Assembly (NCBI GenBank): GCA_963665275.2
Contig: CAXXIN010000017.1
Span: forward strand, 1-64,000
DNA: 64,000 nucleotides
Direction of reading: 5' to 3'
From: Negativicutes bacterium
GTDB taxonomy: Bacteria; Bacillota; Negativicutes; UBA1444
The notes under the pieces were generated by a model. The model saw only the letters and a program-made list of their open reading frames with translations, ran no database searches and was not told the DNA's origin. Made by a program: the position numbers and the translations under genes. Positions 47,861-64,000 of this stretch are shown here, piece by piece. The number at the start of each line of letters is the position of its first letter. Position 1 is the first letter of the stretch.

Positions 47861-48669
47861 GCGTTCCCTCCAGTCCTGTCCCTATCAGTGCAAACGCGAG
47901 CACCAGCGATGTCACGGCAATCCCAGGCGGAAGCAGCCACCAGCCCCATACGTCTAGATAGGTGAACGTCAACGCTTGCTGAATCATCCGACCCCAACTC
48001 TGCGCTGTCGGGTCGCTAATGCCGAGGAAAGCGAGCCCCGCCTCCAAAAAAAACGGCCCTCCGGGCGTCATGAATCATCGCCGCCGACAACACCGGGGCC
48101 AAATCCGGCAAAACATGCCGCCTGAGCAAGTACCAACGCCCCGCGCCAAAAGTGCGCGCAGCCGTCACCGGCCCGGATTCCCTGAGCAATAGCGTCTGGG
48201 ACCGCAGCAATCGTCCCGTTCCCGGCCAGAAGAAAAACGCAAGGATTCCAATCAAGGTGACCGACCCCGGTTGCAGATAGGCGGCAGCAAGCATCGCGGC
48301 CAGAATCGGCGGAATGACCAGTCCGACATCCATCATTCGGACAGTCACCCGCTCCACCCATCCGCCGAGAAATGTTCCACCCGCGCCGAGCAGCGCGCCG
48401 AGAAAAGCCGAAGTCAAGGCGGCCCCCATCGCCACCCCGAGAGAGGTCTTCGCTCCTGCCATGAGTTGGGATAGCAGATCCTGTCCCACATCATTCGTCC
48501 CAAGCCAATGAGTCGCCGATGGTGGCGAAAAAGCCGTCCCCACGTACGCATCCGGGGCATACGGCGTAACAAAAAAACCGGCCAGCGCAACCGCTGCCCA
48601 AAAACAAAAGAGATATAAGCCCAATCGTCCGGGTCCCGCTCTCAGCCTTTTTCCGTATTGGATATGCAT
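47847..48669 (-). CDS. DppC/NikC-type ABC permease, split by a +1 frameshift in an A8 run (48046-48053)
   Basis: HWLGTNDVGQD...ARRAVF and LEAGLAFLG...WGRMI join in frame if one base of the homopolymer is removed. Confidence 0.85.
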
Positions 48670-49634
48670 ACAGTCTTTACCCTCGGATCCAGAATAGGAT
48701 ACAGCAGTTCCGCCAAAAAATTTACAACCAGCACTGTCACTGAACTCAACAGCAAAATCCCCTGCAGCAGGGGATAATCCCTGGCGGCGAGCGCCCGTTG
48801 CAACAAGGTTCCCATGCCGGGGTAGCCAAAAACGACCTCGATCATCAAAATGCCTGCGAACAAATGGGACAGGTGCAATCCCGTCGACGTAGCTGCCGGC
48901 AGCAGCACGCTCCGCCCCAGATGACGATAACGAATGGCGCTCTCATCACACCCCTTGCTCCGGGCTGTGCGAAGGAACGGCGCCCGCAGCAAGCTGGCGG
49001 CAGAGTTGCGGCAAAGCAGGTACATAGTCGTCATCCGTGCCAAAACCAATGAGGCCAGCGGCAACATTAAATGCCGCAGCACATCCAGCCCCCAGGCCAT
49101 GCCCGATAACCCCCCGTACACTGTGACCGCTCCTCCGAGCGGAAACAGCGGCCAGATCACTGCAAAGCCCAATAACAACAGCGCACCGACAAAAAAATCC
49201 GGCACGCCGCCGATCAGCATCAATCCGACGAACAGTCCCTTATCCCAACGGCTTCCTTTGCGCGATCCACTTTCCAGTCCGAGAACAAAACCACCCACGC
49301 TGGAGAGTAGCAACGAGGCTCCTGCCAATAGGATCGTCCATGGTAAAAACCCCACCATGACTTTGACAACTGGCGCGTTGAAAAAATACGACCACCCAAG
49401 GTCCGCCTGCAGCAAAGATCCGATATAGGCGCTAAACTGCTCTGCCCAGGACTGGTCCAGCGCAAAACGCCGATAGATCTCCGCTTTCATTTCCGGCGTC
49501 ATCTGCAGTAACGCTTCTTCGCCATAAATGGCCAGAAAGGGGTCACCCGGCAGCAAGCGCGGCAAAACAAACCCCAATGAGCAGAGGATGAATAACGCGA
49601 TCAAATAATCCGCCAGCAGCTTGGAAACCCTCAT
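48642..49634 (-). CDS. DppB/NikB-type ABC permease
   Basis: LPRLLPGDP, TARSKG, EVVFGYPGMG, RDYPLLQG, LDPR. Start taken at MRVSK. Confidence 0.9.
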   Translation of the reverse strand: MRVSKLLADYLIALFILCSLGFVLPRLLPGDPFLAIYGEEALLQMTPEMKAEIYRRFALDQSWAEQFSAYIGSLLQADLGWSYFFNAPVVKVMVGFLPWTILLAGASLLLSSVGGFVLGLESGSRKGSRWDKGLFVGLMLIGGVPDFFVGALLLLGFAVIWPLFPLGGAVTVYGGLSGMAWGLDVLRHLMLPLASLVLARMTTMYLLCRNSAASLLRAPFLRTARSKGCDESAIRYRHLGRSVLLPAATSTGLHLSHLFAGILMIEVVFGYPGMGTLLQRALAARDYPLLQGILLLSSVTVLVVNFLAELLYPILDPRVKTVCISNTEKG

Positions 49635-49653
49635 CCCATCCTCCTGACCGAAA

Positions 49654-50268
49654 CTACCAGCCCCGGTGGTACGGATCGGCGCAGGAAAGACAGACCTTCC
49701 GGCCCTCGACGAGGCGTATCCGCGGTTCCATCGTAACTTCGCCGCAGGCTTCACAGGCAATGGAGTCAAAAATCCTGGCCCGTTCCGGCATGGCATAAGT
49801 CGGTTTTTTGCAGTCAAACATTTCCTCATCCGCAACTGTCAGCATCTGATTCATCCGCTGGTTCTTCTGCGCTTCGAACTGTGCGTTTTCTTCCGGTGTG
49901 GCATTTCCCTGCATGACTTTTTTTCTCAGCGCGATACCCTCTGGCGTATTCGCCCCAACTTGCCCTTTATATACCAGCCGTACTGATTTTTGCGTATCCC
50001 GGCGGAAAATAGTGAACGCATGCTTACCCTGGTCGCGAAAAATCAGATTGCCTTTGCCAATCGTGCAGCCGAGCATCCACTGAATCGCATCCACGCCGCA
50101 AGCGTCGTTCTCCACAACCGCCACCAGTTCCTCGTCTTTGTCCCTGCGGATGTCCAGTTCCTTCGCAGCCAATTTCGCCGCCCGATAGCCGATGATCAAA
50201 CCGGGGCAGATATGTCCGTGAAACCGGACCACCTCTTTTAATTCTTCAGGAACTTCAAATTTTTCCAT
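49654..50268 (-). CDS. FmdE-family protein with C-terminal CxxC...CxxC zinc finger
   Basis: FHGHICPG, ENDACGVDAIQ, CTIGKGN, CEACGE...CLSC. Confidence 0.88.
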   Translation of the reverse strand: MEKFEVPEELKEVVRFHGHICPGLIIGYRAAKLAAKELDIRRDKDEELVAVVENDACGVDAIQWMLGCTIGKGNLIFRDQGKHAFTIFRRDTQKSVRLVYKGQVGANTPEGIALRKKVMQGNATPEENAQFEAQKNQRMNQMLTVADEEMFDCKKPTYAMPERARIFDSIACEACGEVTMEPRIRLVEGRKVCLSCADPYHRGW

Positions 50269-50286
50269 AGTACTAGCCTCCTTCGA

Positions 50287-51915
50287 TTATTTTCCTTGAA
50301 TAAAAATCAGCTTGTTCTGCGGTATCGGCGCTCCGTTGCCGACGCCCTGAAAGGTGTACCACAAACGAACCTTGTCATTGAATGCCCAATAAGAACGAGG
50401 ATAGTACAGCGGCAGAAATGGCAAATCACGCGCCGCCAATTCCTGCACTTGATATACCCAGTTGCGACGAAGCGTTGGGTCCATTTCTGTGCGGCTCTTA
50501 CTCACTGCTTCTTTCCAGTCTTCGCCCCCTTGCCAGCGGGCGCCAAAGAATATCTCCCGCGTCAGCAGACGACTGAAGGCTTCGGGGTCGCAACCAAGTC
50601 CGCCGCTGCCGGTCAGCGCCAATTGAAATTGCCAGGACTCCTGGCGGCTGTCCACCGTTTTGGGGTCCATCACCCGCAGATCGACGGCAATTCCCTCTTT
50701 AGCCAATTGGTTCTTGATAAATTCGCCCTGTCGCTCTGACGGCGCACCGGTCATCGCCAGCCCGCCCGATCCTACGAGCAGCTCAAATTTCAGAGGCTGC
50801 CCCTCTTTAATCCATTGGCTGTTTTCTTTGCGATACCCCGCTTTGGCGAGCAGGGTTGCCGCCTGAACCGGATCATAAGAATATTTCCCCACAACTTGCG
50901 GATTGGCCCATGGGCTGACGGGTGGAGCCAGACCCGGACTCCCTGCCGCTCCATGACCACGCAGGGTAGTTTTTACCATCTCCGGTCGGTCAATCAGGAA
51001 AGCCAGCGCCTGACGAACTTCGACTTGATTCAGCGGAGCCTGTCGATGATTCATGAGCAGGACGGCGATCCAATCGCCTTCCTGAGAGATCAGGTGAAAG
51101 CCATCTTTTTTCAGCGGCTCCGCCATATCCGGCGGCACTTGCGCGGCATCCACTTCGCCGCGTTTGAGTGCAGCGACCGACATATCCCAGCTCAATTTGA
51201 TGAATCGCAGCTCTTTCACTCTCGCCTCACCCAGATAGTGCCCCGGCGCGGCAGTGAAGCGGTAAGTCCCGTGTTCTTTACTATATTCCGTTAAACGGTA
51301 TGGGCCGGTACCCACCACGGCCGCAGGGCCGGTAAACCTTTTGGGATCTGTCACGTCTTTCCAAATATGTTCCGGCAAAATAGGCACAGAGGAAGCGATG
51401 TAATCCAAAAATGGCGCGTATGGTTCAGTCAAGAAAATTTTTACCGTCGTGTCATCAACAGCTTCCGCCCGAATCACTTGCGGCGTCGAAATGTAGGGAT
51501 AGGGGTTCTTTTTGTAGTACTCAAAGGTAAATACTACATCCTTGGCGCTAAAGGGTGCGCCATCATGCCACTTCGCACCATTTTGCAACGTCATCTTCCA
51601 CGCTTTTTCGTTCGACAGCCATTCCCATGTTTTAGCAAGGCCGGGTCCGTATCCCGTTTCGTTTTTCCAAACCAATGTGTCAAACACAAGGGTCATACGG
51701 ATATAGCCGGGACCCCGGAGATAATGTCCGTAAGGATTGGGCAGCCCCCAGTCACCTGTCGTATCGGCGATGGTCATGATCCAGGAATCACTCTTGGACT
51801 GTGGCACAGCAGACTTCTTATCTGTTGCTGCCCCACCGCACCCTACAGCGAGCAGCAGTATAAGAGCCGTCACCCAAAGGTATAGTACGCGAATTTTATT
51901 TCCCCTGTCGTGCAT
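50287..51915 (-). CDS. Family 5 ABC substrate-binding lipoprotein (NikA/OppA-like)
   Basis: Lipobox AVGC, KWHDGAPFSAKDVVFT, GTGPY, VRQALAFLIDR. Confidence 0.9.
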   Translation of the reverse strand: MHDRGNKIRVLYLWVTALILLLAVGCGGAATDKKSAVPQSKSDSWIMTIADTTGDWGLPNPYGHYLRGPGYIRMTLVFDTLVWKNETGYGPGLAKTWEWLSNEKAWKMTLQNGAKWHDGAPFSAKDVVFTFEYYKKNPYPYISTPQVIRAEAVDDTTVKIFLTEPYAPFLDYIASSVPILPEHIWKDVTDPKRFTGPAAVVGTGPYRLTEYSKEHGTYRFTAAPGHYLGEARVKELRFIKLSWDMSVAALKRGEVDAAQVPPDMAEPLKKDGFHLISQEGDWIAVLLMNHRQAPLNQVEVRQALAFLIDRPEMVKTTLRGHGAAGSPGLAPPVSPWANPQVVGKYSYDPVQAATLLAKAGYRKENSQWIKEGQPLKFELLVGSGGLAMTGAPSERQGEFIKNQLAKEGIAVDLRVMDPKTVDSRQESWQFQLALTGSGGLGCDPEAFSRLLTREIFFGARWQGGEDWKEAVSKSRTEMDPTLRRNWVYQVQELAARDLPFLPLYYPRSYWAFNDKVRLWYTFQGVGNGAPIPQNKLIFIQGK

Positions 51916-51942: not shown

Positions 51943-52047
51943 AAAAAAGCCATAAAGAAATAGGCTCCTAGTGAACCCGATAATCCTTCATGGCTTATCA
52001 CGTATTCTCTATTCCCTGCTTCAGCAAGGTCTGCGGTGCATCCCGCT
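51943..52047 (-). promoter_or_regulatory. Structured 5' leader with intrinsic terminator (attenuator/riboswitch candidate)
   Basis: Hairpins GCGG/CCGC and CCTTGC/GCAGGG, then AAGCCATGAAGGA...TTTCTTTATGGCTT plus U-tract just before the RBS. Confidence 0.55.
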
Positions 52048-52054
52048 TTAATTA

Positions 52055-52083
52055 ATAATATAAGGTTGCAGCGGCGAAGTCAA
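52055..52083 (-). promoter_or_regulatory. Sigma70-type promoter of the ABC/FmdE operon
   Basis: TTGACT-N17-TATTAT. Confidence 0.65.
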
Positions 52084-52113
52084 TCGCGAAGGCAACACTT
52101 GGGCGATTCGGGA

Positions 52114-53073
52114 TTACAAATGAATCGAGTCTAACACGGCGCGAACTGTTTTGGCGCAATTCTTCATCTGGAGAATTTCAGTTTCCGGCAGTGGCAGGGG
52201 AAGCCTTTTTTCCACACCATTTTTACCAATAACACAAGGTATGCTCAGGGAGACCTTTTCATCAATCCCATATTCTCCATTCATCGTCACAGAAACCGGC
52301 CCTACAAAACGTTCGTCAAACAAAACGGCTTTAGCCAGTCGAACCGCCCCCATCGCGATCCCTGTATTCGTCCAGCCTTTTCCATTCAAAACATCATAAG
52401 CGACTTGAACGACTTGCTTGCCGATCGCAGCTCTGTCAATCGGGGAAGCGACTTCAAAGTAATCATCCAGTTGATCTGCAGGAACTCCACCGATATTTAC
52501 CATGCTCCAGGCGGGGAAGGCGGAGTTGCCGTGCTCACCCAGCATGAAGGCTTGCACACTGCCCGGCGCAACATTATAGCGGTCTGCAAGAATTCGCTTG
52601 AGTCGGGCGGTTTCCAGCGTCGTCCCCGTACCAAACAGTTTCCCTTGCGGATAGCCAAAATAATTGGCTGCATAATATGTCGTAATGTCCAGAGGATTGG
52701 TGATAAAAATGATTACAGCGTCTTGGGTGTATTGAACGATTTGACTCATAACCTCTTTAACCGTTTCAGCATTACGGCCCGCTAAGACAAGACGATCCAA
52801 ATTTTCACCGCGAAGAACGCTGGGGCCGGCGCACATAATGATTACCTTGGCGTCCGCGCAATCTTGGTAAGTTCCTTTATGAACATAAATATTCGCATTG
52901 TAGTCGAATGGCGTGGCATGATCAGCGTCCAAGGCTTCGCCCATGGCTTTTTCTTCGTCAATATCAATCAAAGCAATTTCTGAAGCGATTTGGTGAGCGA
53001 TGGCGGTAGACAGAACCTGTGAACCGACATGTCCCACTCCAATGATTACCAACTTATTTGATACTTGACTCAT
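52114..53073 (-). CDS. L-lactate/L-2-hydroxyacid dehydrogenase family protein
   Basis: GVGHVG, ITNPLD, GTTLETARL, GEHGNS. Start taken at MSQVS after GGAGG. Confidence 0.9.
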   Translation of the reverse strand: MSQVSNKLVIIGVGHVGSQVLSTAIAHQIASEIALIDIDEEKAMGEALDADHATPFDYNANIYVHKGTYQDCADAKVIIMCAGPSVLRGENLDRLVLAGRNAETVKEVMSQIVQYTQDAVIIFITNPLDITTYYAANYFGYPQGKLFGTGTTLETARLKRILADRYNVAPGSVQAFMLGEHGNSAFPAWSMVNIGGVPADQLDDYFEVASPIDRAAIGKQVVQVAYDVLNGKGWTNTGIAMGAVRLAKAVLFDERFVGPVSVTMNGEYGIDEKVSLSIPCVIGKNGVEKRLPLPLPETEILQMKNCAKTVRAVLDSIHL

Positions 53074-53640
53074 AAACATCCCTCCATGCATTCTAGGCAG
53101 ATCAGCCCTGTCATTGAGCTGTTTTCCAACAGTAACTATTACTATTAGTTCGCTTTTTAATATTATTCTTTCTCTTCCCTTAGGTCAACTGAAAACATAA
53201 ATTTTTCTACCCAACTCCTGTGTCAAGCCATCACTAGGCCCTCTGACGGCAATAGTCACGGAAATTATTGACAGCAGTAAAGAACTCCCGCAACATAATC
53301 ACTCCGAGATAAGGTTTCGTCGTTATGAAAACACCATCCTTCGTGCCTTTTCCAACTCCGCCACTCAGTCGAAAAAACAGCAAAAATGGACCAAAGGCTG
53401 AGTGAAGCACACCAACCATATTTCTGCCGCAAATGTTTAGAATCAACCCTCAATCCAAACAACTGCATCATAAAATCATACAACATCATTGAGAAACGGC
53501 TAAATTTTCGCCGCGCTGCGATCGGGAAATTCACCGCTTCGATCTGTTGAATATATTCAGGGATGTTGAACGTGTTCGCATAAACGCACCCGCTTAAATT
53601 ATGTAACCCAATATTATTCTAATCATACTGCACTTTCAAT

Positions 53641-53687
53641 CATAAAATGAAACTCCCGGCAAAATATGCCGGGAATTTCATTTTATG
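53641..53687. terminator. Terminator closing the nitrogenase-like operon
   Basis: CATAAAATGAAA...CCCGGCA / TGCCGGG...TTTCATTTTATG inverted repeat. Confidence 0.7.
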
Positions 53688-53688
53688 G

Positions 53689-53925
53689 CTACTCATGATA
53701 AATTTCGAACAGCGCATCCGGTGGTGAAGCTACGATTGCAGCAGCCATAAATTCTTTCACTTTCTGCAATCGAACCCTTTCATCTTTCGTGATTACTTCC
53801 GCATGAATTTTGCGGGATAGATCCATGAACTCCTCTGGGATGACACCTTCCTTTACTGCCAGCCCAATTTGGGACTCTCCATAGCACACTTCAAAATAAT
53901 ATTTTCCGATTGGTATTTTTTTCAT
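53689..53925 (-). pseudogene. Probable C-terminal remnant of an FmdE-like hypothetical protein
   Basis: GKYYFEVCY...KEGVIPEEFMDLSRK...LFEI. No clear RBS; an out-of-frame coupled start (MMDNDFDE-stop) lies just upstream. Family recalled from memory. Confidence 0.4.
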
Positions 53926-53940
53926 TATTCATCAAAATCA

Positions 53941-54081
53941 TTATCCATCATTTCGTTCTTCCAGTTCTCCTTCAATCGACAAATAGCGTTTTTTCAATTC
54001 ATTCGCCACACCTTCATCCGGGCACCACATTCCACGTTTCACTGCCTCCAGCAATTTTTCCGCGATACGCTGCCTTGTCAA
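53941..54081 (-). pseudogene. cobN: C-terminal remnant of CobN/Mg-chelatase large subunit
   Basis: 46-codon open frame LTRQRIAEKLLEAVKRGMWCPDEGVANELKKRYLSIEGELEERNDG matches the CobN/BchH terminal IAERLLEAxxRGxW...YLxxEGxLE signature. Confidence 0.7.
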
Positions 54082-55385
54082 CCATCATTACTCCGCCGCT
54101 GCTTCTCCGCCGCAAAATTATTCCACAGGCGTTCCAATAGATTGGCTGCGCCACGCAGACCCATGAAAGGCCTCCCCGTGAGAATCACTTCGTCGTAAAC
54201 CGGCAAGGCAATGTTGCAACACACAGTCCCTGCTATCGATTGTTGACGCAAAAATGCTTTTTCACTGCCGCTCCCCAACAACAGGCCACCTGATAAGTTT
54301 TTCAGGCGGTTCTCGATTTCTTTACTGCTTGCCGCTCCATCCAAGATCGAATCCACATAGGATGGCATAGGACCGGCCATTGGCCCGTCATGCGCCACTA
54401 CCGTCAGTGCTCCAATGTCCGCCCACTCCAACCGTAAAGCCCGCGCCAGTCCTATCGCCACGGATCCCGGCGCTGCGACAACCGCTTGCTCGAACCAAAG
54501 ATCACCCCAGAACCGTTCCATATCCGCAATTGCCGTCCGAAATTCCTGTTGCCTGGAATTCGCTTCTTTCCGAAGAAAATTGCCTGCGGCGACCGGGTTG
54601 GAAGGGACATGAATTTTCAGCGTATCAATCCACGATACGGTTTGTTCGATTCCATACGGCGGCAACAGGGACACATAAGGCATATCGTATTGCTTCTGCA
54701 GTTGGCGCGCCAGTTCGCCTCCCAGTTCTTCATGCACAACGAGATTGATCGCAGCTCGTCGCATGAAAGCCATCTCGCCAACCGACGATCCCAATCCCGG
54801 CGAAACATGCAGCCGGTATCCAGCCATCAATAGTACCCGCCGCAGTTCCTCCAGATCAGTCACCGCATTGTAATAGCCAACCGAAAGCCCCAATAAATTA
54901 ACGGCCCTGGGATCTATCGCCGAGCAAGAGGGTAACTCCAGCATTTCAAAATACTTTTGAGTCGCTGCGCGATAACCTTCCCAAAACCCGCCGACAAGAC
55001 CGCCGCCATCCATGCATACTACCGGGCAGCCCAAATTCGCCTGACGTGCAATTCCTGCCAAATCATCACCAATAAGCCCCACCGAGCAATTATTAATAAT
55101 GAGAATCACCGAAGGTGAACACTTCTCTTTCAGCGTGTCCAGCGTCTCCAGCAAACAAGCCTCTGTGCCATACACAACCGCCTCATTATCCGCCTGCGAA
55201 CAAAAGAAACGTTCAGGTAACGAGGGACACTGTTTTTCCAAATATCTGCGAGCGTAAAAAGAGCACCATAGAGGCCCGTTGACCACCACCGCCGCATCGG
55301 GAATTCCCGCAAAAAAAGCTGTAGCTCCTGTTAGAGCGCAAGCGCTTACTTGCGTGCAAGCGTTATCCCATTCCGACTTAGCCAT
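54078..55385 (-). CDS. Nitrogenase component-1-like subunit (group IV, K/beta position)
   Basis: ACALTG, NGPLWC, VVYG, NNCSVGLIGDD, PYG, PFMGLRGA; no FeMoco Cys. Confidence 0.85.
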   Translation of the reverse strand: MAKSEWDNACTQVSACALTGATAFFAGIPDAAVVVNGPLWCSFYARRYLEKQCPSLPERFFCSQADNEAVVYGTEACLLETLDTLKEKCSPSVILIINNCSVGLIGDDLAGIARQANLGCPVVCMDGGGLVGGFWEGYRAATQKYFEMLELPSCSAIDPRAVNLLGLSVGYYNAVTDLEELRRVLLMAGYRLHVSPGLGSSVGEMAFMRRAAINLVVHEELGGELARQLQKQYDMPYVSLLPPYGIEQTVSWIDTLKIHVPSNPVAAGNFLRKEANSRQQEFRTAIADMERFWGDLWFEQAVVAAPGSVAIGLARALRLEWADIGALTVVAHDGPMAGPMPSYVDSILDGAASSKEIENRLKNLSGGLLLGSGSEKAFLRQQSIAGTVCCNIALPVYDEVILTGRPFMGLRGAANLLERLWNNFAAEKQRRSNDG

Positions 55386-56676
55386 AAATGATTCCTCCCC
55401 TGTTGCCCCGCCGCTCTGCCAAGCGCACCATTAATTCCAGCAAATAAACGACTCCCCGCACCCCGACCAAGGGCTGCATTGGCAATAATAATTGGGGTTT
55501 CAACGGCTCCTCCAGCTCATGGGTTGATATGATGAAATCGGCTCCGCGCATGACATCCGACGTTTCCGTCGAACCAAGGATCGGGGCAATCGTCTGCCGA
55601 GGCAATTGCTCTCGCAAAGCCGTTTGCTGAGTAGTTGTCAGCGAATCCTCCAACAACACCACGCCACTCAGTCTAGCGCCGGACAGTTCGATCAGCTCGA
55701 ATACCCACGCCGGATCGAACAGCAGCAGGGAGCGACCAATGCAAAAAACAAGTTTTTTCCCCTGTAACCGAAGCGTTACTATTTGTAGTTGCTCATTAAG
55801 TTCCAATGTTTGTTCATTGATCGCTTCTAGCGCTACTGTTTTTTGATTCAACTGTTCACCCATGGCGAATAGCCAATCTCTCGTCCGACTCCAGCCAACG
55901 GGGTAATCTTCTTTCAGCCAAGCAGTTCCGAACATAGTCTGCAAATCGCCTGCAAGTTTTTCCATCCATGGTCTGGCCTGTGGTGAACCGCCTACCGGAA
56001 TATTGATCGCAGCGGCCGGAACGAGTTGCATTTCTTCGATGGATGCATTCGCCGGAAACAAACTGAATTCTTCAAACCCGAAATAGCTCGACAAACGCTT
56101 AATTTCGATAATATCCCGGGTATTGTATCCACCGCGGTCTCCTAAAATCGTAATTCGTTTTTCTTGACGTGGCCGTGGTGTCATAAAGCGCTCCGCCAAT
56201 ATGCGGGCAGAGTGATAAAATCCGGCGTAAAAATCGCCATCCAAAAAACTGTGACAAGGAATTGAAAGAATCGGAACTTGCCAATCTTTCTCGGCCTGCG
56301 AGGCCATCGCATCGACATCGTCGCCAATCACACCCGCCACGCAGGAATTGGCAATGACCACATAGCGAGGATGATATTTTTCCACAACCCAATCAATGCA
56401 TTTGCGCAGTTGTTCACTGCCGCCAAAGATCGAATGTTCTTCCCGCAGTGCGCTGCACACCAGCGGCGCCGTGTATTGTCCCGGTGTAAAATAGTCACGC
56501 CCTATGGACCGGTACTGTATCCCCAAATCCATCTCATGGGTGACGTGGGCGCAGGATCGAGGGCTATGATAGATAACCGCGGCGCCCTCATTGCGCGAAA
56601 CTGCGCGCCAAACGCCGGACATACTGCAACTGTGGCTTTTGTTGCGCAACCGGATTGCCCGTCTACTCGATACCAT
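55378..56676 (-). CDS. Nitrogenase component-1-like subunit (group IV, D/alpha position)
   Basis: SCSMSG, HSPRSC, SIFGG, NSCVAGVIGDD, YPVG. Start taken at MVSSRR, overlapping the H gene. Confidence 0.85.
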   Translation of the reverse strand: MVSSRRAIRLRNKSHSCSMSGVWRAVSRNEGAAVIYHSPRSCAHVTHEMDLGIQYRSIGRDYFTPGQYTAPLVCSALREEHSIFGGSEQLRKCIDWVVEKYHPRYVVIANSCVAGVIGDDVDAMASQAEKDWQVPILSIPCHSFLDGDFYAGFYHSARILAERFMTPRPRQEKRITILGDRGGYNTRDIIEIKRLSSYFGFEEFSLFPANASIEEMQLVPAAAINIPVGGSPQARPWMEKLAGDLQTMFGTAWLKEDYPVGWSRTRDWLFAMGEQLNQKTVALEAINEQTLELNEQLQIVTLRLQGKKLVFCIGRSLLLFDPAWVFELIELSGARLSGVVLLEDSLTTTQQTALREQLPRQTIAPILGSTETSDVMRGADFIISTHELEEPLKPQLLLPMQPLVGVRGVVYLLELMVRLAERRGNRGGIIYG

Positions 56677-57475
56677 AGTCCAGCACCAACTTTTCCAATT
56701 CATCAAAACTTAAGGGTGCCGGTATATTCAAAACCTCATTTTCCATAATGAAGCTTGCCAATTGGCGATATATCTGCGCCTGGTTGGCTTCAGCATTCCA
56801 CTGAATCACCGTTTGCTTATGAATCTCCGCCTGATGCACCACCTTGTCCCGAGGAATGAACGCAACCAACCGGGTATTCAGCCGAGATGCAAAATCGCTC
56901 AACAATTCCCGTTCATTATCGATAGCACGGCTGTTGCCGATGATTCCACCGATGCGCACTTTCCCCCGTCCCGCAAAACGGGCAATTCCTTTGGCAATAT
57001 TATTGGCTGCATACAGCGACATCAATTCACCGGAAGACACGATATATATCTCTGTCGCGTACCCTTCCCGAATCGGTACGGCAAACCCGCCGCATACCAC
57101 ATCGCCCAATACATCGTAAAGAACCAGCTTCTCATCGGTAATGACATTTAGTGCCCGCAGTTTTTCCAGCGCCACAATAATCCCGCGACCGGCGCAGCCC
57201 ACACCAGGTTCCGGCCCACCCGCCTCCACACATTGCACCCCATTGAATCCGTTATGCACGATTTGCTCGACAGTAATATCGTCGCCTTCAGCACGAACCG
57301 TATCCAGAACCGTATGCGGACACACCCTGCCAAGCAGCAGTCGGGTTGAATCGTTCTTGGGATCGCAACCGATTTGGCAGACCGGATATCCCTTCTCTGC
57401 CAGCGCTGCCGAAACATTAGCCGCTGTCGTCGATTTTCCAATCCCGCCCTTGCCATAAAACGCAATTTTCTTCAT
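56663..57475 (-). CDS. NifH-like Fe protein (group IV NflH/CfbC-like)
   Basis: YGKGGIGKST, GCDPKND, EAGGPEPGVGCAGRG, DVLGDVVCGGF, YAANNI. Confidence 0.93.
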   Translation of the reverse strand: MKKIAFYGKGGIGKSTTAANVSAALAEKGYPVCQIGCDPKNDSTRLLLGRVCPHTVLDTVRAEGDDITVEQIVHNGFNGVQCVEAGGPEPGVGCAGRGIIVALEKLRALNVITDEKLVLYDVLGDVVCGGFAVPIREGYATEIYIVSSGELMSLYAANNIAKGIARFAGRGKVRIGGIIGNSRAIDNERELLSDFASRLNTRLVAFIPRDKVVHQAEIHKQTVIQWNAEANQAQIYRQLASFIMENEVLNIPAPLSFDELEKLVLDYGIE

Positions 57476-57884
57476 GCCAAACTTATTCCTTTCTTCCCTA
57501 TCCCCTGAATTTATGGTTGAAATCAGCAGGTGCGCATTAGTCCGTATATAGGAATAACGACGAGTTAATTCCCGTCGCTGACAATCTTCCCTATTCTCTT
57601 CAATGTCGCCATCAGGTGCGCCATTTTATTTCGCCGCTGTCCAAATACGAAATTCCTTCCCCAGGGCTCATTATTTTTTCTTTAGGCTTGGGCTTGGAGG
57701 GATACGCCCTGCAGCGCTTATATCATCCCTCCGTTATTTCCCATTCACGGGAAAACTCCCAAGTTCCGCGGGGCAAATCATCGGTGAACGCGTCCACCAT
57801 CCGCAATTCATCCCGCCGAATTGCACGGGTGTATTCGACTGCGCTCCTGCTGCAGTATGATTTGACATTGAAAAGGCAATGGTT

Positions 57885-58223
57885 CTATGCCTGACTGATA
57901 ATTTGGACGCCAGCAACGCCAAACGCCTGCTTAAGCGGCGTAATGAAATTTCTCTCCAACAGAGACCGGTGGAACTCTTTATCGGTTACGATGCGCAAAA
58001 ACGCACCATCTCGGCGCATTCCGACCAATGTTTCAATGTACTTGCCGAAATCCTCTTCACCAATCAGCCCTTTCAGAGCTTCCAGTTCCGGTTGCAATTC
58101 CTGTCGGGCTGCCACCAGCCGGGAAGATAACGGAGTAAATGCTTCCATGTGCAGTCCCGGTGAATTCATGACCGACAAATTTTCTTCAAACTCTTCAGGT
58201 TGCATTTCGCGATGAAGTAACAT
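57885..58223 (-). CDS. Hypothetical protein, C-terminal half DnaA N-terminal-domain-like
   Basis: RBS GGAGG; FGKYIETL...LRIVTDKEFHRSLLERNFITPLKQAF. Confidence 0.6.
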   Translation of the reverse strand: MLLHREMQPEEFEENLSVMNSPGLHMEAFTPLSSRLVAARQELQPELEALKGLIGEEDFGKYIETLVGMRRDGAFLRIVTDKEFHRSLLERNFITPLKQAFGVAGVQIISQA

Positions 58224-58257
58224 AACTCGACCTCCTTCGCACATAATTGAAGTGTTT

Positions 58258-58539
58258 TTATTTCACTGTATCCAGCAGAAGCAAAATATTGTTGCCGACT
58301 TCCGCATGAAATCTGATCTTGTCCTGATAGTAACTCCAGGACACATGCATCGCGTCATTCTTCGCTCCATATGTTTCTTGAAATTTAGCCGCCATTGCTT
58401 CAGACAGTTTCACTTCCAGCATCAAATTGTAGATGTCATACTTGTCATCTACTTTGACGTATTGCGAATCAATGACTGTCAGCTGGTAACGCTTTTCAAT
58501 CAGTTCAATGAGCCCCGCCAACACATTTTTCTCAGTCAT
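58258..58539 (-). CDS. Hypothetical protein (93 aa)
   Basis: RBS GGAGG; co-oriented directly after meaB. Confidence 0.7.
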   Translation of the reverse strand: MTEKNVLAGLIELIEKRYQLTVIDSQYVKVDDKYDIYNLMLEVKLSEAMAAKFQETYGAKNDAMHVSWSYYQDKIRFHAEVGNNILLLLDTVK

Positions 58540-58557
58540 CGCCCACGAACCTCCACA

Positions 58558-59733
58558 CTATTTGATTTCAAATGGAGATATCCCTTCCATGCTCTGGGAC
58601 CGAACCTTGGCAAATTCGTCGATATACCGCTGCACCGCCATCGTGGCCGACAATCTTCCGCCAATCACATCGCTTTCCAATGTTTTACGGCAGGTAATGA
58701 TCTCCGGCGCGCGATAAAACAGATTATGCAAATGCTCCTCGACCATGGCGTACACCCAGGAAAGGGTCTGTTGTTTGCGGCGCTCCGCCAAAACGTCATT
58801 AGCCTGCCCCTGCGCCATGAATTTCATGATCACATCGTTCCACAATTCTTTGATCCCGTCGCCAGTCATCGCCGAGCAGGCAAACGCTTTCGTTTCCCAT
58901 TGATCGGTAGCCTGGCGGATAAAATATAAAATTCGTTCATATTCGGCGCGGGTGACTAGCGCTCTGCGCCGGTTGTCCCCATCGGCTTTGTTGACCACAA
59001 CGGCGTCGGCAAGTTCCATCACGCCTTTTTTCATGCCTTGCAGCTCATCGCCGGCCCCGGTAATGACAACAAGCAGGAAAAAATCGACCATGGATCGCAC
59101 GGTGGTTTCGCTTTGGCCGACCCCTACTGTTTCTACCAGGATTGTGTCATAACCGGCTGCTTCGCATAAAAGCAAAGTTTCCCGGCTTTTTCGCGTCAAT
59201 CCGCCCAAGGTTCCCCCTGACGGGGAGGGCCGGATGAACGCATTTTTTTCGCGCGACAGTTGTTCCATACGTGTTTTGTCGCCCAGGATACTACCTTTGG
59301 TGACAGTGCTGGACGGATCAACCGCCAGCACTGCTACCCGATGGCCACTTTGACACAGATAGGTTCCCATCGCTTCAATGAATGTACTTTTACCAGCACC
59401 AGGAAAACCGGTAATACCCACCCGAGTCGATTTTCCAGTGTAAGGCAAGAGCTTTTGAATGACTTGTTGCGCCACTTCAAAATGAGCCGCTGCATTACTT
59501 TCGACCAGCGTAATCGCCCGGGAAAGGATCATGCGGTCGCCGCCGAGCACGCCCGCAACATAATCCTCCACAGTCAATTTACGCCTTTTGATTACTGGAG
59601 CCGTATTTTTTATCGGCTCAGTCCGGCTATTCGGCATTCCATCATGGCCGCCATTGACGCCGCACATTACCCGGCACGCAAATTTATCGTCGTCATTTTT
59701 CGGCGCCCATTCCGGCTTGTAAATTTCAGTCAT
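58558..59733 (-). CDS. meaB: Methylmalonyl-CoA mutase-associated GTPase MeaB/ArgK
   Basis: GITGFPGAGKST, AVDPSS, GDKTRM, ETVGVGQSE, NKADG. Start taken at MTEIY. Confidence 0.92.
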   Translation of the reverse strand: MTEIYKPEWAPKNDDDKFACRVMCGVNGGHDGMPNSRTEPIKNTAPVIKRRKLTVEDYVAGVLGGDRMILSRAITLVESNAAAHFEVAQQVIQKLLPYTGKSTRVGITGFPGAGKSTFIEAMGTYLCQSGHRVAVLAVDPSSTVTKGSILGDKTRMEQLSREKNAFIRPSPSGGTLGGLTRKSRETLLLCEAAGYDTILVETVGVGQSETTVRSMVDFFLLVVITGAGDELQGMKKGVMELADAVVVNKADGDNRRRALVTRAEYERILYFIRQATDQWETKAFACSAMTGDGIKELWNDVIMKFMAQGQANDVLAERRKQQTLSWVYAMVEEHLHNLFYRAPEIITCRKTLESDVIGGRLSATMAVQRYIDEFAKVRSQSMEGISPFEIK

Positions 59734-59737
59734 ATCA

Positions 59738-61927
59738 TTACTCCGCGAGTCTCTTGGACAATTCTTCAAGCACTTTCTTGGCGCAAACCGGAATGATGGT
59801 GCCAGGTCCAAAAATTGCCGCTGCGCCGTGTTCTTTGAGGAACGCGTAATCCTGCGCCGGAATAACGCCGCCGATCACGACCATGATATCTTCGCGACCG
59901 CGCTTCTTCAGTTCTTCGATCAACTGCGGCATCAACGTTTTATGACCGGCAGCAAGTGAACTCATCCCGACAATGTGCACGTCGTTGTCCACAGCATCCT
60001 GTGCCGCTTCTTCCGGTGTCTGGAACAAAGGACCGATATCAACGTCGTATCCCATATCCGCGAAAGCGGTCGCGATGACCTTCGCTCCGCGATCATGTCC
60101 ATCCTGGCCCCATTTTTGCGATCATGATACGAGGCCGGCGACCTTCGTGTTTTTCGAACTCATTCGCCAAGTCCCGCACTTCTTTGATGACGTCTTCATC
60201 TGCGAATTCACTGCTGTAAACGCCGGAAATAGAGCGAATGATCGCTTTATGACGACCGCAGACTTTCTCCACCGCATCGGAGATCTCGCCCTTGCTGGCG
60301 CGAGCCCGCGCTGCGTTAACAGCCAGTTCCAGCAAGTTGCCTTCGCCGGTTTCCATGGAATGAGTGATGGCATTCAACCAGTGTTCTACATCCTCTTGGT
60401 TTCGATTTGCGCGCAATTTTCGAAGTCGTTCGATTTGCGACAGCCGCACGGCGGTATTGTCGACTTCGAGAATATCCAGCGGATCTTCTTTTTCCAGCCG
60501 GTAATCATTCACGCCGACGATTTTTTCGGCGCCGGAATCGATATGAGCCTGCCGACGGGCGGAAGCTTCTTCGATTCTCATCTTCGGCAATCCGGTATCG
60601 ATGGCTTTGGACATACCGCCCAGCGCTTCGACTTCCTGTATATGCGCCCCAGGCGCTTCGGATCAGCTGGTTGGTCAGGGCTTCCACATAGTAGGAACCG
60701 CCCCAGGGATCGATGACTTTGCATACCTTGGTTTCATCCTGAATGTAGAGCTGCGTATTACGCGCAATACGGGCGGAAAAGTCGGTCGGCAAAGCGATCG
60801 CTTCATCCAGCGCGTTGGTATGCAATGACTGTGTGTGACCCAGCGCCGCCGCCATGGCTTCGACGCAGGTACGGGTAATGTTGTTGAACGGATCTTGCTC
60901 GGTCAGGCTCCAGCCGGAAGTCTGCGAGTGGGTACGCAGCGACATGGATTTTGTTTTCTTCGGGCCGAACGAATTGACGATTTTTGCCCAAAATCACGCG
61001 AGCGGCACGCATTTTTGCCACTTCCATGAAATAGTTTTTTCCAATCGCCCAGAAGAATGACAGCCGGGGAGCAAATTGGTCAATCTGCAGACCGTGTTCT
61101 GTACCGGTTCGCAGATATTCGAGACCGTCGGCCAACGTGTAGCCCAGCTCGATATCCGCAGTGGCTCCGGCTTCCTGCATGTGATAGCCGGAAATACTGA
61201 TGCTGTTGAATTTTGGCATATAGGCCGATGTATACTCGAAAATATCGCCGATGATACGCATGGAAGCAACGGGAGGATAAATATACGTATTTCGCACCAT
61301 GAACTCTTTCAGGATATCGTTCTGAATCGTACCGGCCATGATTTTTTTATCCACGCCCTGCTCTTCGCCCGCCAAAATATAGAAGGCCAGGATAGGAAGC
61401 ACTGCGCCGTTCATGGTCATTGACACCGACATTTGATCCAGTGGGATACCGGAGAACAGGATTTCCATGTCCAGGATCGAATCCACAGCCACGCCTGCCT
61501 TGCCAACATCGCCGACAACACGAGGATGATCGGAGTCATAACCCCTGTGAGTGGCAAGGTCAAAAGCGATGGACAGACCTTTTTGCCCGGCAGCCAGATT
61601 CCGGCGATAGAAAGCGTTACTTTCTTCGGCTGTGGAAAAGCCTGCATATTGACGGACCGTCCAAGGCTTCGTGACATACATCGTAGGATACGGCCCGCGC
61701 AGATACGGCGGCACACCCGCCATATACATCAAATGCTTGCAATCTTTGTAGGCTCTTTCGTCATACAACGGATCGAGGTTGATTTGCTCCATCGTCCGAA
61801 AAATATTTGCCTCGAACGATTTACCGGTTTCCCTTTCCAGATTGGCCTTCCATGCGTCATAACCTGATTGTCCGGGATTCGCCGCCTTGTGAAAGGGAAT
61901 TGCGCCAAAATCAGGAAATTTAGCCAT
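59738..61927 (-). CDS. mutB: Methylmalonyl-CoA mutase large subunit, three apparent +1 frameshifts (~60990, ~60650, ~60108)
   Basis: [30 protein letters not shown]; the B12 motif [10 protein letters not shown] is restored on removing one G. Confidence 0.9.
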
Positions 61928-61928
61928 C

Positions 61929-64000
61929 TTAGAACATCCCCCTTTCCTGCTGCATCTTGACCAAGGTTTCATTAGCAATTGGATCTGACGCTGATATAGT
62001 CGTCCATACCTGCTGCATCGCAGATTTCTTTTAGTTCTTTGGAAGGTGCGCCAGCCAGGAACACTTTCATTTTCGGCTTCTTTTCCTTGATGAGCTGGGT
62101 TACTGCCGGAGCCAGCTCGGGATATGTCGCATCCGTCGAGCAGACAATCGTGACATCAGCTCCCGAATTCATTGCGGCATCGACAGCTTCTTCCACCGTT
62201 GGGAAACCGTCGTTCGGCATGACTTCAAAATTCGCAACCTGCATAAAGGAAGTTACGAACTCCGCTCTGGCCTTATGCTGCGGAATCGGTCCCATGTTCG
62301 CCAGGAAAATCTTCACGTTTTCTCCTGTGCGAGCCTTAAACGCTTCGGTGCGTTGGCGCATTTCCTCATAGCGTTCCGTCCAACGATGCGGCAGTATGGG
62401 TTCAATCGTCAGCGCTGTCGCGTCGGTTGTCAGGGCGGCGGCAATTTCGCCCATAGTTGCGCCTGCCGTCATGGCCCATTTTGCTACATCAACAAGCACG
62501 CCAGCTTCGCTGCCGTCGCACTCATCCAGCGCTTTCAGCAAACCCTGCACCTGTTTTCCGTCTCGTTTTTTCGCATTCTCCGCCAAGGCTGCCATCCGCT
62601 GCGCTTTGATGGCGACGAAATCAATCGCAGGCACTTCCACCGGAACTTCGGTTACATTGGGATACATGTTGTTGCCAACGGCTCGGTCTGCACGGGTAGC
62701 CAGCTTTTTAAACCGATCATCCAGTACGGTTTTTACAGCCGCCTGAACTTTTTCCGTTTTCAAGGCAAGCGATAATCCCGCCCGCTTTTTCGATTTCCTG
62801 CATTTTCGCCCAGACTTTTTCCGCGAATTCATCAGTAAGTGATTCAATGTACCAAGAGCCACCGGCAGGATCGACCGGCTGCAAGAAGTTGAATTCGCTT
62901 TGCATCATGATTTGAATATTACGCGAGATTCGACGTGAAAATTCGTCGCTGGGGCGAATCACCGAATCAAAGGGTTTGACTGTCATGCCGTCGATCCCGC
63001 CCACCACTGCCGAAAACGACTGGGAAGCCGCCCGCAGCAGGTTGACATAGGGATCATAGGTTGTCTGGGTAAAGGAAGAGGTGCTGACAAACAAGTTGAT
63101 TTTTTTCGCCGCCTGATCTCCGCCAAACGCTTCGACCACTTGCGCCCAGATCATCTTGGCGGCGCGCAGTTTGGCGATTTCCATGAAGAAATTCGCGCCG
63201 ACGCTAAAATGGAAGCGAACATGCTGGGCGAAGCTATTGATATCGATATTTCGAAGTTGCATTGCTTTGATGTAAGTAATTGCCTCGCTCATCGCATACG
63301 CGACTTTCCTGCACATCATTGGCGCCACCGTTATGATAGGTATCCGCGTCAATCATTACGGTTCGGAGCTGTGGCGCATTCGCCCTGGCCCAGGCAATGC
63401 CATGCGCCATTTCATCGTAATACTCGTCCAAAGACCGCGGCAATTTCCCGTCAGCAACCAGCTCGCCAATCGGGTCCATGGTCACTGCACCCTGCAAGTT
63501 TTTTGTCCCAACACCACGTTTCTCCGCCAGCGCTGCAATATTGCCCAGCATCGCGACATTGGAAGCTCCTGCGTGCAGAGCCATTTCATGCTTATCCAGT
63601 TCAATGCCGTCCAATACGGTTTCCAGATCGGACAACGTAGAGAGTGATGCGCCCTGTTTTGCAAACTCGTCATCCGGGGCGTCCTGCACGTCCAGCCCCT
63701 TCATCGTTGCTTTATCCAAACGGAAACTGACAGCGGTCGTACCTTTTAGCAATTCTCGTTTTTCGACCGCATTTGCATCCGCCGGGGTCATGGAATCGCT
63801 TTGTTGGGCGATAGTCCACGGCTTGGACATATACCCTCCCGCATGGAACGCCACGCAAGTTGCTTTCGAGGCCGGGATACGTTTTGCAGTGGGTCAATTT
63901 TTCCGTATCCCGACATGATGTAAATCGGCTTTAACGTAATCCCCTCGTATGTCTTGGTAAACATACTTTTTTCGAAATCGGCGCCCTTGAGGGCCAGAAA
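61929..64000 (-). CDS. mutA: Methylmalonyl-CoA mutase small subunit, multiple frameshifts, 5' end off the window
   Basis: [49 protein letters not shown] spread over several frames; C-terminus [13 protein letters not shown] abuts mutB. Confidence 0.88.

Follow-up and report, generated by a model that had tools for sequence, protein, structure and literature searches.

On the minus strand of a 64,000-nucleotide stretch of DNA from a Negativicutes bacterium (assembly GCA_963665275.2, contig CAXXIN010000017.1, positions 1 to 64,000; here termed the window, with C17 denoting the contig as a whole) lie three overlapping genes, nflH, nflD and nflK, that encode a nitrogenase-like Fe protein and two component-1 subunits. 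On balance we favour the view that NflHDK is a three-component, ATP-driven reductase of a corrinoid or a cobalt tetrapyrrole, belonging to a family within the cobalamin regulon of the Negativicutes. The proteins fall outside every characterised family against which they were tested. Both component-1 subunits retain the P-cluster cysteines and lack the cysteine ligand of the nitrogenase cofactor, and in related genomes the genes are associated with a cobaltochelatase, with corrinoid uptake genes and with cobalamin riboswitches. From these observations we infer the class of substrate, the type of cluster and the reaction.

The gene nflH (56663-57475) encodes a NifH-type Fe protein of 270 amino acids, the ATP-dependent electron donor. 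nflD (55378-56676) encodes an alpha-type component-1 subunit, of 432 amino acids when read from the ATG at 56676, and nflK (54078-55385) a beta-type subunit of 435 amino acids. All three open reading frames (ORFs) are intact and open, and analysis with Pfam bears out the initial annotation of this stretch, which had described three overlapping genes for an intact Fe protein and two different component-1 subunits. The nflD frame would be longer (55378-56706) if it were opened by a TTG at 56706. The alignment with relatives begins only at about residue 12-15, which makes the ATG at 56676 the most likely true start. The overlap between nflH and nflD is 14 nt (44 nt with the TTG start) and that between nflD and nflK is 8 nt. 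In-frame stops flagged within the nflD matches of relatives were set aside; as the query carried the doubtful TTG extension, they probably lie upstream of the true start. The region 52000-57673 is letter-identical in contigs of two public runs (X1 and X3), and therefore neither the nfl genes nor the stump of a cobN gene that follows nflK (discussed below) is an artefact of assembly.

NflH matches the Pfam family Fer4_NifH (PF00142) over its full length with 360 bits against a cut-off of 25, and its translation retains the Walker A sequence GKGGIGKS and both cluster cysteines (CAGRG and VVCGGF). It is 60% identical to the NifH encoded by the same genome. NflD and NflK match Oxidored_nitro (PF00148) with 161 and 175 bits respectively. 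When the three proteins were scanned against the NCBIfam models for Nif, Vnf, Anf, NifEN, CfbD and BchNB/YZ, none of them reached a curated cut-off. NflH scored 382.1 bits with the nifH model (TIGR01287, cut-off 394.35) and 376.2 bits with that for CfbC (NF033200, cut-off 402). The best NCBIfam score of both NflD and NflK was with NifE, at 85 and 95 bits for a cut-off of 505. Scores with the remaining models were 74 bits for NflD with nifD (cut-off 654), 28 bits for NflK with nifK (cut-off 427), 25 bits with nifN (cut-off 327), 34.6 and 35.2 bits for NflD and NflK with CfbD (TIGR03282, cut-off 268.4) and 82.6 bits for NflK with BchB (cut-off 490). Among proteins of solved structure NflH is best matched by NifH (6nzj_A, 327 bits), with MarH (9fmg_D) at 275 bits. 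The best matches of NflD are weak and nearly equal, 9p1x_A and MarD (9fmg_A) both having E ~2e-17, while NflK is matched best by a NifEN fusion (5e-18), followed by MarK (5e-15) and BchB (4e-13). Measured directly against the solved Mar proteins, the scores are 66 bits for MarD with NflD and 58 bits for MarK with NflK.

A search of 1.84 billion cluster representatives (E<=1e-3) returned 946 relatives, and trees were built from relatives, family sequences and the Nif proteins of the same genome using FastTree (139 rows) and IQ-TREE (48 rows). In the FastTree phylogeny the D family falls within a 60-row clade with a support of 99. With IQ-TREE the D family and a small sister group form a clade, and the K family a clade of its own, each with a Shimodaira-Hasegawa-like approximate likelihood ratio (SH-aLRT) of 100. 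In both trees NflD and NflK lie outside the Mar-like clade (support 98-99) and outside NifD/E and NifK/N. The Mar-like clade is anchored by one representative (P0205) that scores 456 bits with the MarD of 9FMG, the structure of MarDK2H2 (PMC12552129). Only the Mar-like and Nif clades are labelled in the trees, and the exclusion of NflHDK from the Cfb and Bch families is a matter of model cut-offs and of E-values to Protein Data Bank entries alone. NCBIfam scans of 10 outgroup representatives from the trees placed no family above its cut-off. Thus the proposal in the initial annotation that the system fits no characterised family is upheld, in that no cut-off was reached, both subunits lie outside the labelled clades and the solved structures are remote (E ~1e-17). 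We note that proteins of ~680-770 amino acids (P0179-P0263; 22 among the 150 representatives listed) have a NifH-like N-terminal domain fused to a D-like domain. The NifH-like domain is 43-53% identical to NflH, and the fusions are nearest to the D family in the 48-row IQ-TREE phylogeny and in the other half of the 139-row FastTree phylogeny. NifH-NifE-like fusions are mentioned in the available text of Dos Santos et al. 2012 (PMC3464626).

AlphaFold2 (AF2) models of the two subunits are confident, with predicted local distance difference test (pLDDT) values of 87.7 for NflD and 85.9 for NflK. The NflD model is nearest in fold to MarD (9fmg_A, template modelling (TM) score 0.68), within a range of TM 0.62-0.68 for MarD, NifD and NifE; BchN is absent from its top 50 fold matches. 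The NflK model is nearest to BchB of the dark-operative protochlorophyllide oxidoreductase (DPOR; 3aek_B, TM 0.76-0.80), with MarK and NifN close behind.

To examine the ligands of the metal clusters, the NifD, K, E and N proteins of the same genome were aligned by MAFFT with 36 D and 34 K sequences of the family. At each of the three P-cluster positions of NflD there is a cysteine in 36/36 sequences, and at those of NflK in 34/34, 34/34 and 33/34; the window proteins have all six (3+3). At the position of Cys275 of NifD, which binds the iron-molybdenum cofactor (FeMo-co), the D family has Gly in 30, Ser in 4 and Ala in 2 of the 36 sequences, the window protein having Gly (AINIPVG). The K family has His in 29, Asn in 4 and Arg in 1 of 34; in the window protein this is His218 (AINLVVH), within a motif NxVVHEELG in the family. 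Glu220 of NflK is invariant in a separate alignment of 32 sequences. HMMER alignments to the solved NifD, MarD and NifEN give the same register of ligands. All the cysteine motifs given in the initial annotation, together with the two sequences that it had placed at the Cys275 column, are therefore correct on alignment. The same annotation had named placement within the Mar or Nif clades with conserved ligands as a test of the idea; neither NflD nor NflK is so placed, and the Cys275 ligand is not conserved.

Of 301 genomes sampled from the Negativicutes, 84 carry the Nfl family, and these span 32 of 93 genera. Across a sample of the phylum it occurs in 4 of 401 genomes, with only one among the ~388 that lie outside the Negativicutes. 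It is frequent in Negativicutes with genomes of 2-2.6 Mb, and some members are labelled as gut or faecal in the protein database. Eighty of the 84 Nfl-positive genomes were examined for CobN, and it is present in 79. In at least 57 of these 79 the start of CobN lies <=15 kb from nflD on the same contig; 16 others have no CobN on the nflD contig (many of the assemblies being fragmented), and in 6 it is farther off. An association of homologues with chelatase and uptake genes, which the initial annotation had suggested looking for, is thus observed. The representative CobN scores 934 bits against the cobaltochelatase equivalog cut-off of 822 (TIGR02257). Three CobN proteins were inspected for membrane segments (that of the same genome and those of loci L050 and L045); none was found, and these three are therefore taken to be cytoplasmic.

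The gene neighbourhood was analysed in 20 loci of 20 kb taken from 19 genomes, by clustering the ORFs and naming each recurring cluster from one representative. A TonB-dependent receptor is present in 13/20 loci, CobN and a BtuF-type periplasmic binding protein each in 12/20, a FecCD permease in 10/20, CbiZ in 8/20, a ChlI/ChlD-type AAA+/VWA pair in 6/20, and CbiK and a xylose-isomerase-type TIM barrel each in 5/20. A radical S-adenosylmethionine (radical-SAM)/SPASM enzyme occurs in 6/20 loci; it is nearest to AhbC/AhbD/NirJ enzymes of tetrapyrrole tailoring and to peptide maturases, none above cut-off. A CobA-type adenosyltransferase lies directly after nflK in 2/20. In three loci (L036, L050 and L051) the order nflH-nflD-nflK-btuF-fecCD-cobN-radical-SAM gene is found on a single strand. 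A second D-K pair, with no adjacent nflH and no CobN nearby, was observed in some genomes (L042 and L052, from G222 and G124).

CbiD was found in 267 of the 301 genomes sampled from the class; of the 84 with Nfl, 80 have it. The phyletic pattern therefore does not inform the question of de novo synthesis versus salvage. The four Nfl-positive genomes without CbiD are G000 (92.6% complete), G101 (73%), G108 (99%) and G167. G108 has CobS and also lacks CbiC and CbiB, yet its three missing genes could reflect a single gap in the assembly, because they lie within 13 kb on one contig of a relative (G017).

The cobalamin riboswitch (Rfam RF00174) was sought on the same strand upstream of nflH in the 18 loci that hold this gene. 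It lies <400 nt upstream in 7/18, <=1.05 kb upstream in 9/18 (with a tetratricopeptide repeat (TPR) or CbiK gene intervening in those beyond 400 nt) and <=8 kb upstream in 12/18. The riboswitch nearest to the nflH of the window is at C17:64435-64620, 6.96 kb upstream and just beyond the end of the window. Only genes of the same strand separate the two (methylmalonyl-CoA-mutase-type genes, meaB and two small ORFs), and the same-genus locus L046 has an identical layout with a riboswitch 6.8 kb upstream of nflH. The nflHDK genes of the window may therefore be read through from the distant riboswitch. In three loci (L050:11907-12767, L045:16218-17075 and L036:777-1241) a regulator of the MerR type, which has a Cass2/GyrI-like effector domain, is encoded close to the nfl/cobN operon or divergently from it. 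We consider that it may provide an alternative mode of control in L050, because no riboswitch was found near the operon there.

These observations suggest the following mechanism. An NflH dimer with a [4Fe-4S] cluster would hydrolyse ATP and send low-potential electrons to an NflD2K2 core, where they would be received at an inter-subunit cluster held by the 3+3 cysteines; this could be P-cluster-like or a [4Fe-4S] cluster. The electrons would then pass to an organic cofactor bound in the site that corresponds to those of FeMo-co and protochlorophyllide, with no second metal cluster. An organic substrate is the most likely because both subunits lack the cysteine of the L- and M-clusters and no nifB-type gene is linked. 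Its probable nature is suggested by the linked CobN-ChlI-ChlD genes, corrinoid import, CbiZ and the B12 riboswitches, which make a corrinoid or a cobalt tetrapyrrole the likeliest candidate; CobN-ChlI-ChlD, the class I cobaltochelatase encoded alongside, would either consume or produce this compound. Two kinds of chemistry can be envisaged. The cobalt centre could be reduced from Co(II) to Co(I) before it is adenosylated, or else double bonds of the ring could be reduced, as in DPOR, chlorophyllide oxidoreductase (COR) and CfbCD. The conserved His-Glu-Glu of NflK falls, in sequence, at the position of the FeMo-co/protochlorophyllide cavity, and the similarity in fold of the NflK model to the tetrapyrrole-binding BchB provides structural support. 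According to the available part of a review, in the aerobic pathway CobNST is followed by the Co(II) reductase CobR and then by an adenosyltransferase, while for the anaerobic pathway the same part describes no dedicated Co(II) reductase (PMC7242693).

Within the window, nflK is followed directly by a stump of cobN that corresponds to its last ~43 codons (53945-54072, minus strand, located by blastx). The stump matches the C-terminal 40-43 residues of nine CobN proteins from related loci with 52-64% identity (E down to 1e-10), so that the chelatase remnant proposed in the initial annotation is a genuine C-terminus of cobN. It has no start codon, lies in a stop-to-stop frame of 53941-54084 and is identical in runs X1 and X3. 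Beyond it is the C-terminal remnant of a HemN-like radical-SAM gene of the PRK08629 type (53265-53534, minus strand; NCBIfam NF006385, E 7.7e-5, profile positions 333-381 of 439). Between the two remnants the ORF list gives an open frame of 79 codons (53689-53928, minus strand), of a kind with no match among the proteins of the 20 related loci. A G+C-rich palindromic hairpin flanked by T-runs at 53654-53674 is a possible two-way terminator of the operon; it was found by consensus scanning, in which nothing scored above shuffled sequences and no promoter-like site was seen on the minus strand between the small ORFs and nflH.

An intact cobN is present in the same genome. The section C17:64.4-90.7 kb contains five cobalamin riboswitches and intact genes for CobN, PRK08629, CbiK, a radical-SAM/SPASM enzyme, ChlI, ChlD and a TonB receptor. 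This CobN/ChlID cluster is riboswitch-controlled and on the same strand as nflHDK, 10-25 kb away. With an intact CobN ~20 kb off, the stump is evidently not the only chelatase of the genome. The intact PRK08629 gene (C17:75269-76552, 471 bits) follows the intact cobN, the same order as that of the stumps; the stumps thus appear to be left over from a second copy or from an ancestral nflHDK-...-cobN arrangement. The uptake and cobN genes that adjoined the operon have been lost in this genome, apart from the cobN stump. The CbiK-type homologue of the cluster (C17:73869-74822, equivalent to L053:9869-10822) begins with a hydrophobic segment that resembles a signal sequence, a feature not shared by the CbiK beside nflH in L037, and to judge from this segment may be a periplasmic binding form.

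Upstream of nflH are two small conserved ORFs of 119 and 93 amino acids (57885-58539, minus strand) that match no Pfam family. They occur in loci of the same genus only, being 52-90% identical to ORFs at the same position in L046 and L047. They are preceded by meaB (351 bits to MeaB) and methylmalonyl-CoA-mutase-type genes (58558-64000, minus strand). The order mutase-meaB-nfl is repeated in L046, L047 and L038, and it is possible that these genes and nflHDK form a single transcription unit headed by the riboswitch at C17:64435-64620. Genes of the mutase type and meaB directly follow cobalamin riboswitches in L053 (C17:64001-84000) and L038 (682-6532). An arrangement in which B12 would switch off a B12-dependent enzyme is odd; it occurs in the genus of the window and in a single genome besides. 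The mutase-type genes of the window are split into pieces of 173-391 amino acids, compared with 713-759 in relatives. Runs X1 and X3 are each one base shorter than the window at 57674, 60108, 60647, 60990, 61972, 62749, 63305, 63845 and 63909, and otherwise match exactly. The split ORFs coincide with eight of these single-base differences, and so the frameshifts are probably sequencing errors in the window assembly rather than signs of pseudogenes.

On the other side of the operon a NikA-type ABC transporter (binding protein, two permeases and a fused ATPase) and an FmdE-domain protein are encoded at 46181-51915 on the minus strand, as identified with Pfam and NCBIfam. The binding protein scores 247 bits with SBP_bac_5 and 127 bits with nickel_nikA (cut-off 393). 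The FmdE domain scores 159 bits, and the protein that contains it, which has a zinc ribbon, sits inside the cassette. The cassette probably takes up cobalt or nickel; cobalt is suggested because an orthologous cassette in L037 (1253-6660) directly follows a cobalamin riboswitch. The initial annotation was correct about these domains, but its nickel context is replaced by one of cobalt and cobalamin, as indicated by the riboswitches, a CobN above the TIGR02257 cut-off, CbiZ, CbiK, the CobA-type adenosyltransferase and Btu-type uptake. Its suggestion of a reductase for a metallated tetrapyrrole survives to the extent that the context is best read as pointing to a substrate of the tetrapyrrole type, with cobalt or cobalamin in place of nickel.

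Its statement that the window holds no nifB, nifE or nifN is also accurate, since the window has no further PF00148 match and no NifB-like match, but a complete nifHDKENB set exists on another contig of the genome. The region C18:77437-87557 contains canonical nifH, nifD (537 amino acids), nifK, nifE and nifN with a NifB-type radical-SAM gene, the only match in the genome to a NifB-like search. From its gene content, then, the organism has a true nitrogenase in addition to Nfl. A search of the 20 contigs of this 92.6%-complete assembly gave no match for CbiD, CbiC, CbiJ, CbiB, CbiZ or CobS, and CbiD is present in 10/11 other genomes of the genus. Cobalamin riboswitches (at least five), mutase genes of the B12 type and the CobN/ChlID cluster are nonetheless present in the genome. 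Either the organism is a cobamide auxotroph or there are gaps in the assembly. The Nfl family occurs in only 3/11 other genomes of the genus, where the copies have 70-87% protein identity and the same gene order.

A number of observations weigh against a role of NflHDK in the reduction of a corrinoid or cobalt tetrapyrrole. The counts are made over related genomes that are not independent and therefore overstate the support, although the pattern spans many genera. Adjacency to CobA, which would favour reduction to Co(I), was seen in only 2 of the 20 loci. No RF00174 match was found within 8 kb in 6/18 loci, including L050 with its divergent MerR gene. In the window itself there is no riboswitch at the Rfam gathering score, none in 53000-58700 even at E<=1, and no intact uptake or chelatase gene adjacent to nflHDK. 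The column of His442 of NifD is occupied by His in 33/36 NflD sequences (within a TTHEL motif), in a gappy region of the alignment; with MarD as the nearest fold, this means that NflD may have a cluster-binding site. The six cysteines suggest a P-cluster, and to our knowledge no tetrapyrrole-reducing homologue uses one. In Dehalobacter an operon of CobN, Mg-chelatase, CbiZ and Btu genes is induced 46-fold by corrinoid starvation, and the available text makes no mention of Nfl (PMC4285132); the module works there without Nfl, which is therefore not essential to it. Lastly, in the accessible portions of two papers, sets of TonB, BtuF, FecCD and CobN-like proteins can also serve haem (PMC12583661, PMC6460266).

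The last point leads to the strongest rival explanation, the salvage of haem or another metalloporphyrin, in which TonB, BtuF and FecCD would import haem, the CobN-like protein would remove the metal, and NflHDK would provide reduction for dechelation or reduce the leftover porphyrin. HmuS, a homologue of CobN encoded in a TonB-receptor operon, strips iron from haem and requires a reductant, according to the part of the source available (PMC12583661), and a 'BtuS' class of CobN-like proteins has been proposed for metalloporphyrin salvage (cited in the accessible part of PMC6460266). HemN-like and AhbD/NirJ-like radical-SAM genes lie within the clusters, and the CbiK-like protein of the window's own genome has a signal peptide. 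Yet the genes are regulated by cobalamin riboswitches, CbiZ and CobA are specific for corrinoids, and CobN is here without the membrane anchor of HmuS and BtuS and is above the cobaltochelatase cut-off. Moreover ChlI/ChlD motors are present, whereas HmuS works without ATP. We regard haem salvage as unlikely. An F430-like role in reducing a nickel tetrapyrrole seems the least probable of all, despite the 376 bits of NflH with the CfbC model and the nearby NikA-type transporter and FmdE protein. The subunits reach 35 bits with the CfbD model against 268 and are two rather than one, the transporter of the same type in L037 has a cobalamin riboswitch in front of it, the annotated loci revealed no further cfb-type gene, and the hosts are not methanogens. 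Cobalamin riboswitches often control B12-independent substitutes for B12-dependent functions, and on this basis NflHDK might be an organosulfur reductase of the Mar/Isr kind, made under B12 scarcity to supply a pathway to methionine that does not need B12. NflD is matched best in fold by MarD, and the published Group IV clades are tied to sulfur metabolism in the text available (PMC13753814). Set against this, Cys270 of MarD is missing, NflD is outside the Mar-like clade, there is no adjacent marB or nflB and no sulfur-assimilation gene among the recurring neighbour clusters, and in relatives the operon is joined to BtuF, FecCD and CobN. The same source, as far as available, reports that systems other than IV-C are without methylthio-alkane reductase (MAR) activity (PMC13753814). 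We think such a role very improbable.

A further alternative is that NflDK is a scaffold or maturase like NifEN, assembling or carrying a metal cofactor and so coupling metal import to assembly. In the available text of Dos Santos et al. a scaffold role is proposed for Nfl genes beside ABC transporters (PMC3464626), NifE gives the best NCBIfam score of both NflD and NflK (85 and 95 bits), and a NifEN fusion is the best solved-sequence match of NflK. These scores are, however, far under the cut-offs, the cluster-binding Cys of NifE and NifD is missing in both subunits, and the linked genes are those of tetrapyrroles and corrinoids, with no recipient enzyme among them; we consider this improbable. 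Finally, the operon of the window could be a relic in the course of being lost, its partner genes and riboswitch gone and no role left to it, a possibility that concerns this copy only and not the function of the family. The stumps of cobN and the HemN-like gene after nflK, the lack of a proximal riboswitch, the presence of the family in only 3/11 other genomes of the genus, and the unmatched CbiD, CbiC, CbiJ, CbiB, CbiZ and CobS in the 92.6%-complete assembly are all in keeping with this. Yet the three ORFs are intact with every family-invariant ligand, the same-genus copies are 70-87% identical with the gene order kept, and the intact CobN/ChlID cluster lies 10-25 kb off on the same strand. 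That the operon is a relic seems to us quite unlikely.

Corrinoid or cobalt-tetrapyrrole reduction by NflHDK can be extended to a more far-reaching proposal, which we put forward tentatively and with considerable doubt. NflHDK would be the first nitrogenase-family enzyme to act on a B12-type cofactor, and with the cytoplasmic CobN-ChlI-ChlD it would make up an ATP-driven module for reduction and metal exchange, induced by B12 starvation and common in gut and oral Negativicutes. It would either carry out a dedicated Co(II)-to-Co(I) reduction for the anaerobic pathway, or reduce imported corrinoids that are unusable so that cobalt can be removed and reinserted. Corrinoid supply shapes such communities, so that a new enzyme handling B12 would matter for the ecology of the microbiome. 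If its substrate is the cobalt centre, it would join the nitrogenase-type machinery recently found to drive tetrapyrrole-bound metals to the +1 state.

The nitrogenase-like enzymes of known function serve in nitrogen fixation, in chlorophyll and F430 synthesis and in organosulfur cleavage. A 2026 review, in its accessible text, distinguishes Groups IV-A to IV-F, V and VI, and treats the remaining clades as the main open problem of the field, with gene context of little help except where it involves sulfur genes (Group IV) or tetrapyrrole genes (Group VI; PMC13474568). The context of the Nfl clade is unusually consistent and clear, with B12 riboswitches, a cobaltochelatase, and genes for corrinoid uptake and remodelling, and this narrows 'function unknown' to a few assays with cobalt corrinoids. 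Our literature search, to which most subscription journals were closed, found no paper linking nitrogenase-like enzymes to B12, CobN, CbiZ, corrinoids or riboswitches. The known paralogues named in the initial annotation were an incomplete set, as the review in its available text also covers Nfa (IV-A), isethionate reductase (IV-F) and Group VI (PMC13474568).

Several of these systems invite comparison. In MarBHDK (Group IV-C) there is the same H-D-K architecture with a full set of P-cluster cysteines, and MarD is the top fold match of NflD. By contrast the Mar-like representative scores 456 bits with MarD compared to 66 for the window NflD, which belongs to a separate clade and has no Cys at the column of MarD Cys270, a ligand of the [Fe8S9C] cluster (PMC12552129); nflHDK has neither marB nor a sulfur-gene context. 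Groups IV-A, IV-D, IV-E and IV-F, which go back to North et al. 2020 and later work, are described in the accessible text as mostly tied to sulfur genes and nflB, with the L-cluster Cys kept (PMC13474568; PMC13753814). None of these features is seen for nflHDK, the comparison being with the description only, and members of the Nfl family may already have been assigned to Group IV-D or IV-E.

CfbCD (Group IV-B), which makes F430, is likewise a nitrogenase-like reductase of a metallated tetrapyrrole of the sirohydrochlorin branch, and NflH fits the CfbC model almost as well as the NifH model. It differs in that CfbD, which carries a [4Fe-4S] cluster, consists of one kind of subunit only, where Nfl has two distinct subunits and a cobalt context. 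The Group VI NflHD(K) of Elusimicrobia resembles nflHDK in the absence of Cys275, in having no link to NifB and in its radical-SAM neighbours; these features, and a proposed role in tetrapyrrole reduction, are given in the available parts of two sources (10.1101/765248; PMC13474568). As described there, Group VI NflH is ~40% identical to NifH and the D/K pairs have <=4/6 cysteines (10.1101/765248; PMC13474568), whereas nflHDK has 60% identity and 6/6 cysteines. The two are set apart by the description of Group VI and not by its sequences. In the aerobic B12 pathway the place between CobN-type chelation and adenosylation is taken, according to the accessible text, by CobR, a flavin-dependent enzyme that reduces cob(II)yrinic acid a,c-diamide (PMC7242693). 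The analogy is one of function only, the fold of CobR being unrelated and its reaction proceeding without coupling to ATP.

The DPOR complex (BchL/ChlL with BchN-BchB) is similar to NflHDK in consisting of an Fe protein and two distinct component-1 subunits without FeMo-co ligands, and in acting downstream of a class I chelatase (ChlH/I/D); BchB is also the nearest fold to NflK. However, the cluster of DPOR is held by three Cys and an Asp of BchB, while NflK has all three Cys, the scores with the BchN and BchB models are 25-83 bits against cut-offs of 420-490, and the Nfl hosts are non-phototrophs with regulation of the B12 type. The ligand pattern and type of neighbourhood are shared most directly with the Nfl clades of Dos Santos et al. 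2012, which in the text available are uncharacterised, have 3+3 Cys with both FeMo-co ligands absent, and in some cases lie beside ABC transporters (PMC3464626). The description of NflHDK in the initial annotation as uncharacterised is right in that it belongs to no characterised family against which it was tested, but pairs of this kind had been noted in 2012. No link to B12, CobN or riboswitches is given in that part of the paper (PMC3464626). The superfamily and the 3+3-Cys sequence class have been seen before, and what is new is the proposed, testable assignment of a function linked to B12.

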